DNA of 64,000 nucleotides, taken from sequence record PQ390715.1, one strand, 5' to 3'. The position numbers and the translations under genes were made by a program. Positions 2,525 through 2,595 of the stretch are shown in pieces (positions within the stretch are counted from its first letter, which is position 1; each line of letters begins with the position of its first letter). The stretch is from Escherichia phage SHEFM2K. Under the pieces are notes generated by a model. It was not told the DNA's origin. It was given only the letters and a program-made list of their open reading frames with translations, and searched no databases.

Positions 2525-2595
2525 TCAGGGGAGTTTTTCGTATGTCTTACTCCTGGACTACTTAACGGGGTTACTTGTTTCGTTCCCCGTCCTGA
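2525..2595 (-). ncRNA. Conserved two-hairpin leader element (copy 1 of 3), candidate cis-regulatory RNA
   Basis: About 71 nt between tandem promoters; stems GGAGT/ACTCC and ACGGGG/CCCCGT with 14-nt loops; near-identical copy at 12658-12730. Confidence 0.35.

Follow-up and report, generated by a model that had tools for sequence, protein, structure and literature searches.

The question raised by the element at positions 2525-2595 of the window (the whole 64,000-nt stretch of Escherichia phage SHEFM2K, sequence record PQ390715.1, analyzed here) is whether it is made as a structured RNA and, if so, what that RNA may do at the start of an infection. A first-pass annotation, made from the letters alone, had described two hairpins between tandem promoters at this site, a second copy at 12658-12730, and a diverged third copy. 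All three sequences are as described there, and two kinds of search agree on them. A degenerate 33-nt pattern occurs at exactly three sites in the window, all on the minus strand, compared to 0.00 expected from shuffles. A covariance model run over the 64 kb, a check that the annotation had itself proposed, recovers only the same three copies (A, B, and C below), with the next-best match at E=0.15. With a model of the shared core, copy C gives the best match (54.8 bits, E 3e-12), followed by copy A (E 3e-11) and copy B (E 3e-10).

The window is 97-98% identical to phages G17 (vB_EcoM_G17), Sharanji, PBECO4, and 121Q, and belongs with these Asteriusvirus-like jumbo coliphages. All plausible genes in its first 16 kb are carried by the minus strand, and the annotation of one related record includes the element site in a direct terminal repeat. 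Approximately 20 early genes between 1 and 16 kb are each preceded by the same cassette (repeat families D1, D2, and D13), in which an AT-rich tract is followed by a near-consensus sigma70 promoter (TTGCAA or TTGACA, 16 nt, TATAAT), the start site with the sequence ACATCRAG, a GC-rich hairpin closed by a 4-nt loop, and then a Shine-Dalgarno sequence and the ATG. The genes behind these early cassettes are small ORFans, and the surrounding 16 kb, made up of repeated cassette units, is a plastic region. The proteins encoded downstream of copies A, B, and C match phrog_14947, phrog_5162, and phrog_27871, respectively, all of them PHROGs without an assigned function, and no Pfam family was matched by any of the three.

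Since the minus strand carries all promoters and genes around the element, the RNA corresponds to the reverse complement of the sequence as it had been written. Read on the plus strand, positions 2525-2595 are TCAGG-GGAGT-14 nt-ACTCC-TGGACTACTTA-ACGGGG-14 nt-CCCCGT-CCTGA. Both pairs of hairpin arms in the proposed layout are therefore present, but the 11-nt spacer TGGACTACTTA had been left out of its formula. The order promoter, element, promoter, gene was correctly recognized, provided that it is read along the minus strand, to which all of the following coordinates refer.

Copy A lies behind promoter P1 (2604-2631; TTGCAT at 2631-2626, a 16-nt spacer, and TATAAT at 2609-2604; 9/12 matches), from which transcription is predicted to start near A2596. 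The motif of approximately 73 nt (2524-2596) is predicted to form a three-way junction. Its closing helix joins AUCAGG (2596-2591) to CCUGAU (2529-2524) and encloses hairpin 1 (2590-2565; ACGGGG/CCCCGU with a 14-nt loop), the linker UAAGUAGUCCA (2564-2554), and hairpin 2 (2553-2530; GGAGU-AAGACAUACGAAAA-ACUCC). The linker triplet GUC (2558-2556) is complementary to GAC in the loop of hairpin 2 (2546-2544) and may form a linker-loop pseudoknot spanning 2544-2558, possibly extended by GUA (2561-2559) with UAC (2542-2540). A second promoter, P2 (2488-2515; TTGACA-16-TATAAT, 12/12), begins 8 nt after CCUGAU and probably starts transcription at approximately 2481, ahead of the phrog_14947 gene (2179-2454, with its ATG at 2454).

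Copy B has the same arrangement, with P1 at 12739-12766 (TTGCAA-16-TATAAT; probable start near 12731), the motif at 12657-12731, and a closing helix between 12731-12726 and 12662-12657. Hairpin 1 (12725-12698; ACGGGGA/UCCCCGU) is followed by the linker (12697-12687) and hairpin 2 (12686-12663), the middle pair of the pseudoknot is C12690-G12678, and P2 (12621-12648; TTGACA-16-TATAAT) precedes the phrog_5162 gene (11977-12588, 203 aa). Contrary to the earlier description, copies A and B do not differ in their loops only. A 2-nt insertion in copy B gives stem 1 a length of 7 bp, and a linker U in copy A has become C together with a change of A to G in the loop, a linked change that is compensatory.

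Copy C is a minimal form without hairpin 1 (9706-9767), behind a P1 at 9775-9802 (TTGACA-16-TAGAAT) with a probable start near A9767. Neither the TCAGG/CCTGA stem nor a 3' arm for the ACGGGG hairpin is present, and GACG/CGUC closes the structure instead, as the 5' end AUCAAGACG (9767-9759) pairs with CGUCGAG (9712-9706). The linker (9750-9740) leads into hairpin 2 (9739-9716; CCAGU-AAGUCGAACGAAAA-ACUGG), in which CCAGT/ACTGG replaces GGAGT/ACTCC; the compensatory change reported earlier for the third copy is thus real. The middle pair of the pseudoknot is A9743-U9731. Downstream lies a weak P2-like site (9690-9718; TGGACA-17-TACACT, with a TG extension), for which a second scan picks TTGATA-17-TAAACT, and then the phrog_27871 gene (9169-9651).

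Folding of the individual sequences is consistent with these structures for copies A and B. The minus-strand RNA of copy A has a minimum free energy of -22.5 kcal/mol (z -2.9) and that of copy B a z-score of -2.7, compared to -1.5 and -1.9 for the plus-strand folds of the two copies, and the RNAalifold consensus of the A/B subgroup fits the predicted fold of copy A. Copy C alone gave no significant signal on the minus strand (z -0.7). Counts of G-U versus A-C, at 6 versus 3 and 5 versus 5, do not discriminate between the strands; the strand assignment of the motif is based on the orientation of promoters and genes. A coding role was rejected, as the motif contains no start codon in the RNA sense and a 2-nt indel separates copy A from copy B; the sole overlapping open reading frame (9674-9802, minus strand) begins at the TTG of a -35 hexamer. 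We also rejected an intrinsic terminator or attenuator, because the GC-rich hairpins are without a U-tract. No terminator-like site was found at any window copy on either strand, the hairpins being followed by UAAGUAG or CCUGAU.

Relatives of the element extend well beyond the jumbo phages. The 91-nt element is present in 44 phage records at 87-100% identity, which include, besides jumbo phages, Justusliebigvirus (EmilieFrey, muut) and Vequintavirinae (A73, W70). In the latter two groups the whole P1-motif-P2 unit is found at 87-95% identity before different genes, and in muut it precedes a homologue of the window gene at 2179-2454. When copy C was used as the query, its core was matched in T7-like phages at approximately nt 550-590. 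In T7 itself the motif occupies nt 536-593 of 39,937 and is flanked by two annotated E. coli promoters, A1 (498) and A2 (626), and in the T7 relatives phiA1122 and 13a the core is likewise located between annotated A1 and A2. A 69-nt T7 query matched 488 phage records, Melnykvirinae among them, with hosts in Escherichia, Klebsiella, Salmonella, Yersinia, Enterobacter, Citrobacter, Serratia, Aeromonas, and others. An RNA polymerase with 60% or more identity to the T7 enzyme is encoded in approximately 1,100 records, and compared to this number the 488 records suggest that the motif is probably common but not universal in T7-like phages. The distant jumbo or rV5-like phages Hallingskeid (Erwinia), Munch (Salmonella), and LTH01 carry the motif between two sigma70-type promoters. 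Scans of IMG/VR and metagenomes with looser patterns added approximately 40 loci, mostly on T7-like contigs; the strict 33-nt pattern, which is too strict for this purpose, had no match in IMG/VR, and one metagenome match (L022) was discarded because it looks like chance. The carriers are therefore T7-like podoviruses, Rak2-like jumbo phages, and phi92-like and rV5-like myoviruses.

These elements appear to share a common origin. A covariance model built only from 27 Autographiviridae sequences recovers copy C (E 1e-6), copy A (3e-5), and copy B (3e-3), the same three copies as above, as well as every myovirus copy; the window elements are therefore homologous to the T7 element. What all groups share is not the two-hairpin form that had been taken as the conserved unit, but hairpin 2, the linker on its 5' side, and a closing helix. 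The core consists of the linker UAAGUAGNC and a 5-bp hairpin with a 14-16-nt loop, (A)UAAGNC..ACGAAAA, to which all three window copies conform. The linker GNC pairs with the loop GNC, giving an H-type pseudoknot in which the A-rich ACGAAAA would be the crossing strand. This segment is invariant, although the instances were gathered with patterns fixing TAAGTAG, AAG.C, and A.GAA, so that the invariance of those letters is partly by construction.

The pairing of the core is supported by covariation. Among 29 distinct cores, hairpin 2 occurs with four stems (GGAGU/ACUCC, CCAGU/ACUGG, CCUGU/ACAGG, and CUUGU/ACAAG), with double-sided changes in three of its five pairs. The middle linker-loop pair in the same cores is AU in 22, UA in 4, CG in 1, GC in 1, and unpaired in 1, and the three window copies alone display three of these states (U-A in A, C-G in B, and A-U in C). 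The GUA/UAC extension of the pseudoknot is mostly paired, without covariation. In a plain MAFFT alignment, 92.5% of cells are paired, compared to 25-35% with slid partners, and the covariation score of 0.291 (0.080 in shuffles) was reached by none of 500 shuffles. Over both alignments, 92.5-94.9% of cells are paired versus 21-35% when slid, and covariation is 0.27-0.29 versus 0.07-0.08 when shuffled. The earlier suggestion of selection on RNA structure, made from a single compensatory change, is thereby strongly supported.

In T7-like phages a short 4-bp hairpin lies upstream of the core (CCGG/CCGG, CCAG/CUGG, CCAC/GUGG, or CGGG/CCCG), and its loop pairs with a segment 2 nt past hairpin 2, or 0-3 nt past it in the general definition of the T7-type motif, forming a second pseudoknot. 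This helix is found as GUCAA/UUGAC, GUCAUC/GAUGAC, GUCGGU/ACCGAC, GAUUAG/CUAAUC, GUGAA/UUCAC, and GUCAC/GUGAC. Its five core pairs are 97-100% paired in 32 distinct sequences, with 5-10 double changes each, in an alignment fitted only to hairpin 2 and the short upstream hairpin, so that the second pseudoknot was outside the model. The 3' arm coincides with the -35 hexamer of A2 in several T7-like phages. In others it is unrelated to a -35 sequence and the promoter lies further downstream, but the pairing with the upstream loop is still kept, which indicates that the constraint is on the RNA and not on the promoter.

The window copies do not have this upstream-hairpin pseudoknot. In the myovirus forms, including those of the window, this 3' segment has its partner at the very start of the transcript, in the first 6-9 nt. 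A single MAFFT alignment of all myovirus forms puts their 3' arms out of register, so duplex energies with cross-group controls were used: the duplex between 5' end and tail has -7.3 kcal/mol with its own partner, compared to -4.35 +/- 2.1 with tails from other groups. In addition, AUC/GAU in this helix of Hallingskeid is AUG/CAU in a related jumbo-phage contig. With this closing helix, copies A and B become three-way junctions and copy C a simple enclosure, while its counterpart in T7-like phages makes a second pseudoknot, and the window copies are a structural variant of the T7-type motif in which the helix is present but the topology is different. Thus covariation supports the hairpin stem, the linker-loop pseudoknot, and the closing helix, and compensatory change supports the short upstream hairpin of T7-like phages as well. 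The outer stem and hairpin 1 are invariant in the near-identical A/B subgroup, and their pairing is predicted from thermodynamics and by analogy with the other subgroups. A further pairing, of UAAGUA with UACUUAC in the P2 discriminator, was dropped because UACUUAC is missing from several groups.

The promoter context is conserved along with the core. Among instances with full flanks, 52 of 55 have a sigma70-type promoter (at least 9/12 matches) that starts 1-46 nt past hairpin 2, so the promoter-element-promoter order seen in the window recurs in other phages. An upstream promoter was seen in most instances, although a simple scan misses some atypical -10 elements. All three window copies have P1 upstream and P2 within 1-46 nt downstream, P2 of copy C being weak. 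The motif is located near a genome end or in a terminal repeat in T7, Munch, fENko-Kae01, and the G17 group. In T7-like leaders an rrn-type boxA lies approximately 230 nt further downstream, while only chance-level boxA matches were found near the window copies. Taken together, we consider it very probable that each window copy is a member of a conserved structured RNA motif and forms the first 60-75 nt of an immediate-early minus-strand transcript made from P1 by the host sigma70 RNA polymerase.

The motif does not correspond to a described RNA family that we could find. No tRNA or tmRNA was detected in the window by ARAGORN, and none of the 4,227 covariance models of Rfam 15 matched the window at gathering thresholds. 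Searches of Rfam at E up to 10 with a window copy and the T7, phiA1122, Munch, and LTH01 loci gave nothing relevant. None of the phage records that we inspected annotates an RNA element at the motif, and those of T7 show only the promoters there. Full-text literature searches with T7 sequence strings and topics returned nothing but listings of templates and primers; they did not extend to older T7 papers behind subscription, which may contain earlier remarks on sequence conservation between A1 and A2. The main text of a large 2023 catalogue of candidate structured phage RNAs does not discuss the motif. Among cellular genomes, 185,579 species representatives yielded a single archaeal match, where we estimate that roughly four would be expected by chance, and 5,426 complete E. 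coli genomes and a plasmid collection contained neither a copy of the motif nor a similar RNA. We therefore rate the motif, which has no Rfam 15 family, as in effect a new family among promoter-proximal structured leader RNAs of phages, and there is a substantial chance that it is also functionally a new class.

What, then, might this RNA do? Promoter-proximal antitermination or processing, with which the first-pass annotation compared it, is a hypothesis. We infer that the motif acts as RNA, since covariation in a pseudoknot makes no sense in duplex DNA. Its partner is more likely to come from the host than from the phage, as the motif is missing from the plasmids searched, from phage HK022, and, apart from one chance-level match, from the cellular genomes searched, yet present in unrelated families of virulent phages; because these phages share little else, the host target is probably a conserved one. 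The motif is most likely to be a leader that binds a conserved host component, perhaps the transcribing RNA polymerase, at the onset of infection. The fold would display its invariant nucleotides to a component that is constant across the Enterobacterales, and the most likely partner would be the transcribing host RNA polymerase or its elongation or termination factors. The RNA should have fully emerged as the polymerase crosses the strong P2 promoter 1-46 nt downstream, where a polymerase that has kept sigma70 could be held by the consensus -10 element for as long as loading requires. Elongation, pausing, or termination, or the fate of the first phage transcripts, would then be expected to change. 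However, the distance from motif to P2 varies from 1 to 46 nt, which argues against a strictly distance-dependent mechanism.

Two properties of the T7 early region bear on this scheme. Purified E. coli RNA polymerase that has started at T7 A1 terminates efficiently at the early terminator TE, and RNase III cuts the leader off at R0.3, away from the mRNAs. Because of the RNase III cut, any effect in T7 would have to be co-transcriptional or in trans; together with the stop at TE, it weakens a purely cis role as a stabilizer of mRNA in T7 and leaves a decoy acting in trans open. Engagement of the host polymerase or of elongation and termination factors, analogous to the action of HK022 put RNA, is put forward tentatively, as a real possibility that falls short of an even chance, and its specific form in which the RNA is loaded onto RNA polymerase is, by itself, rather unlikely. 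For the broader proposal, that a pseudoknotted RNA is the first product of T7 and of many unrelated virulent enterobacterial phages and binds a component of the host, be it RNA polymerase, an elongation factor, a ribonuclease, or a defence protein, we would give not quite an even chance of being a new class.

The alternative that survives best is that the RNA serves in trans as a decoy or sponge. Within seconds of the entry of the DNA, the very strong P1 promoter would fill the cell with a pseudoknot RNA that is compact and resists nucleases, and this RNA, free or cleaved off, would titrate a host RNA-binding protein or a defence component while P2 supplies the mRNA independently. The strong conservation of unpaired nucleotides across unrelated virulent phages fits such a role, as do the location of the motif in first-entering or terminal-repeat DNA, the separate gene promoter downstream (52 of 55 instances), and the separation of the T7 leader from all open reading frames by RNase III at R0.3. 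However, the window has no terminator or recognizable processing site between motif and P2, no E. coli chromosomal or plasmid RNA is similar enough to be mimicked, and the tandem repeats of type III antitoxin RNAs are not present in the motif. We regard a decoy as unlikely, though still worth considering.

Somewhat less probable is a role in protecting the 5' end, in which the fold would hide the end of the RNA, block RNase E in its 5'-end-dependent attack and scanning, and stabilize transcripts from P1. Positions +1 to approximately +9 are paired with the motif tail in all myovirus forms, and the simple GC hairpins of the neighboring cassettes, of which approximately 20 carry one at the same post-start position, may act likewise. 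But those ordinary hairpins vary freely, and neither an invariant loop nor pseudoknots would be needed for a barrier. In T7-like phages, moreover, the motif begins approximately 37 nt into the RNA behind another hairpin and is split from the mRNA by RNase III, and the promoter that follows the motif is left unexplained. Sequestration of the 5' end is therefore real in the myovirus forms but leaves the invariant loops unexplained.

A self-cleaving ribozyme, or a specific processing site that trims the leader and gives the downstream RNA a defined 5' end, seems very improbable. Small ribozymes are common in phages, and a compact fold with one or two pseudoknots and invariant unpaired nucleotides is typical of them. 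However, no Rfam ribozyme family was matched at E up to 10, and the shift in topology from a pseudoknot in T7-like phages to a three-way junction in jumbo phages would be unusual for a catalytic core. To our knowledge, decades of in vitro transcription from T7 A1 have produced no report of cleavage at the motif site.

The least probable account of all is a function in the DNA itself, in which the element would serve P2 as an UP element or as the site of a regulator, or would be a hot spot at which a mobile cassette of the PeSL type recombines. In favor of it, an A-tract (ACGAAAAAC) and AAAATAG are found ahead of the P2 -35, the P1-motif-P2 unit has passed from one phage family to another and come to stand before different genes, and PeSL-like cassettes make up the region (PMC2839356). 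However, four helices, including two pseudoknots, show compensatory changes for which duplex DNA offers no reason, the spacing between the A-tract and the P2 -35 is highly variable, and in several T7-like phages the 3' arm is not a -35 hexamer yet covaries with its partner.

A leader RNA that binds a host component may be set against these alternatives as the preferred reading. T7 is among the best-studied viruses, and its records annotate no RNA element between A1 and A2. Podoviruses with genomes of approximately 40 kb and myoviruses with genomes of 140-380 kb have both retained the core, in which up to four helices show compensatory changes, and the carriers share almost nothing beyond their hosts and the use of host RNA polymerase for their first transcripts. 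Conservation of the core across such different phages points to a specific interaction with host machinery in the first moments of infection. If the motif is indeed a new class, a step of host takeover based on RNA has gone unnoticed even in T7. The motif also provides a defined RNA family for curation of the Rfam type and a marker of immediate-early transcription units in jumbo phages, where none of the early genes has an assigned function, and it has a bearing on engineered T7 and on phage-therapy chassis, whose left end is often rewritten.

Among known systems, the closest is the A1-A2 region of T7, which has the linker (UAAGUAGAC), the 5-bp hairpin, the AAGUC..ACGAAAA loop, the linker-loop pairing, and the closing helix in common with the window copies, and which likewise sits past the first host promoter and ahead of the next. 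In T7-like phages, however, the 3' arm pairs with the loop of the upstream 4-bp hairpin and often doubles as the A2 -35, and the motif begins approximately 37 nt into the RNA behind another hairpin, whereas the window motif includes the 5' end of the transcript.

In its architecture the motif resembles H-type pseudoknots whose A-rich loop lies in the minor groove, such as the SAM-II and preQ1 riboswitches and frameshift pseudoknots, with which it shares the linker-stem-loop-linker-partner topology and the A-rich crossing strand. Protein-bound leader pseudoknots, such as that of the T4 gene 32 mRNA and the S4 site of the alpha operon, share its location in the 5' leader as well. Unlike these riboswitch, frameshift, and leader pseudoknots, the motif has no adjacent expression platform, ribosome-binding site, or slippery site, and no match in Rfam.

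In its setting it recalls the put RNAs. The putL and putR RNAs of phage HK022 are cis-acting antiterminators that bind the zinc-binding domain of the RNA polymerase beta' subunit, and the folding of putL has been proposed to benefit from a pause element, similar to a -10 sequence, that lies past the transcription start (PMC9378689). Like the motif, a put RNA is a structured product of host RNA polymerase of approximately 70 nt, made near an early phage promoter and acting with no dedicated protein; as the motif is spread over unrelated phage families, its carriers presumably have no phage protein in common either. However, put RNA consists of two long bulged stem-loops with a triplex in stem I, in place of the pseudoknot or junction seen here (PMC9378689), and it is found in temperate lambdoid phages, whereas the motif is found in virulent ones. 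The motif model had no match in the HK022 genome at E up to 1, which indicates that there is no homology with put. Since purified polymerase from A1 stops at TE, factor-independent, put-like read-through of intrinsic terminators is unlikely in T7. The variable spacing to P2 and the RNase III cut in the T7 leader also speak against a simple action of the put type.

Finally, the neighborhood of the motif resembles that of the PeSL stem-loops of T4-type phages, which are simple hairpins proposed to be terminators or attenuators as well as recombination sites (PMC2839356). In both cases small ORFans are preceded by an AT-rich tract and a strong sigma70 promoter, and then by a stem-loop of the form GGGG...CCCC with a Shine-Dalgarno sequence (PMC2839356), and the P1-motif-P2 unit, like PeSL, has been shuffled between genes and phage families. 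Unlike PeSL, the motif has conserved loops and pseudoknot covariation and has spread to podoviruses. The neighborhood is therefore a cassette region of the PeSL type, and the motif embedded in it is more than a simple stem-loop.

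Directly upstream of P1, the sigma70-type promoter that precedes the leader RNA motif, copies A and B each carry one copy of a 13-nt motif, GCCCAYMGGGTGC. These are two of its eight occurrences, which lie on both strands of the window (2690-2702, 4696-4708, 6361-6373, 10922-10934, 12861-12873, 12919-12931, 14822-14834 and 15037-15049), against an expectation of 0.48. Each of these two occurrences in turn sits behind an additional promoter-like site, at 2751-2723 for copy A and 12984-12956 for copy B. With this site ahead of P1, the copy A and B loci may each have three tandem promoters. 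The site near copy B (TTGACT-17-CATAAT, minus strand) also converges with a plus-strand site, TTGACA-17-CATAAT, at 12812-12840. The approximately 115 nt between them is free of ORFs, and the 12812-12984 region may encode a small RNA or an antisense transcript.

The window holds further repeated promoter-associated elements. On the minus strand of 1-16000, small ORFans are preceded by about 20 PeSL-like cassettes (repeat families D1, D2 and D13). In each of them an AT-rich tract is joined by a near-consensus sigma70 promoter, ACATCRAG at the start site, a GC hairpin whose loop is 4 nt long, and a Shine-Dalgarno sequence. A comparable cassette organization has been described in T4-type phages (PMC2839356). 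A conserved 12-bp hairpin, AAAGGGYTGAC-NNNN-GTCARCCCTTT, followed by GCTATWAT (families D12 and D15), occurs at 11-38, 2731-2758 and 6407-6434 and at six sites within 40152-53998. It looks like a terminator whose TTGAC doubles as the -35 for a TGnTATTAT -10, which would make the element a composite terminator-promoter.

Two further regions contain paralogous genes. The plus strand of 21226-34723 holds 12 tandem units of about 1.2 kb each (families D3-D11 and D18), in which every ORF opens with ATGTTACCTTTTGGAAGAATG (MLPFGRM...) and is preceded by a hairpin, GCCAGTAC...GTACTGGC, and a conserved TTGTATTAAATATAGTATAA; these may represent a terminator followed by a non-sigma70 promoter. On the minus strand, 16742-20798 is a cluster of small paralogous genes, marked by recurring gene starts of one family containing AGGTACTAATATGAATAAAGAAC (families D14, D17, D19 and D20).

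T7-like early leaders (T7 itself, L005, and loci L004, L006, L011, L056 and L057) retain a boxA of the rrn type, GCTCTTTAACAA (T7 nt about 815-827), as a perfect match. It follows the leader RNA motif at a distance of about 230 nt and stands immediately ahead of the RNase III site. Together with strong promoters in tandem, approximately 125 bp apart, this gives the T7-like leader a resemblance to an rrn operon leader. T7 has three tandem promoters, A1-A3, a number that the copy A and B loci may match.
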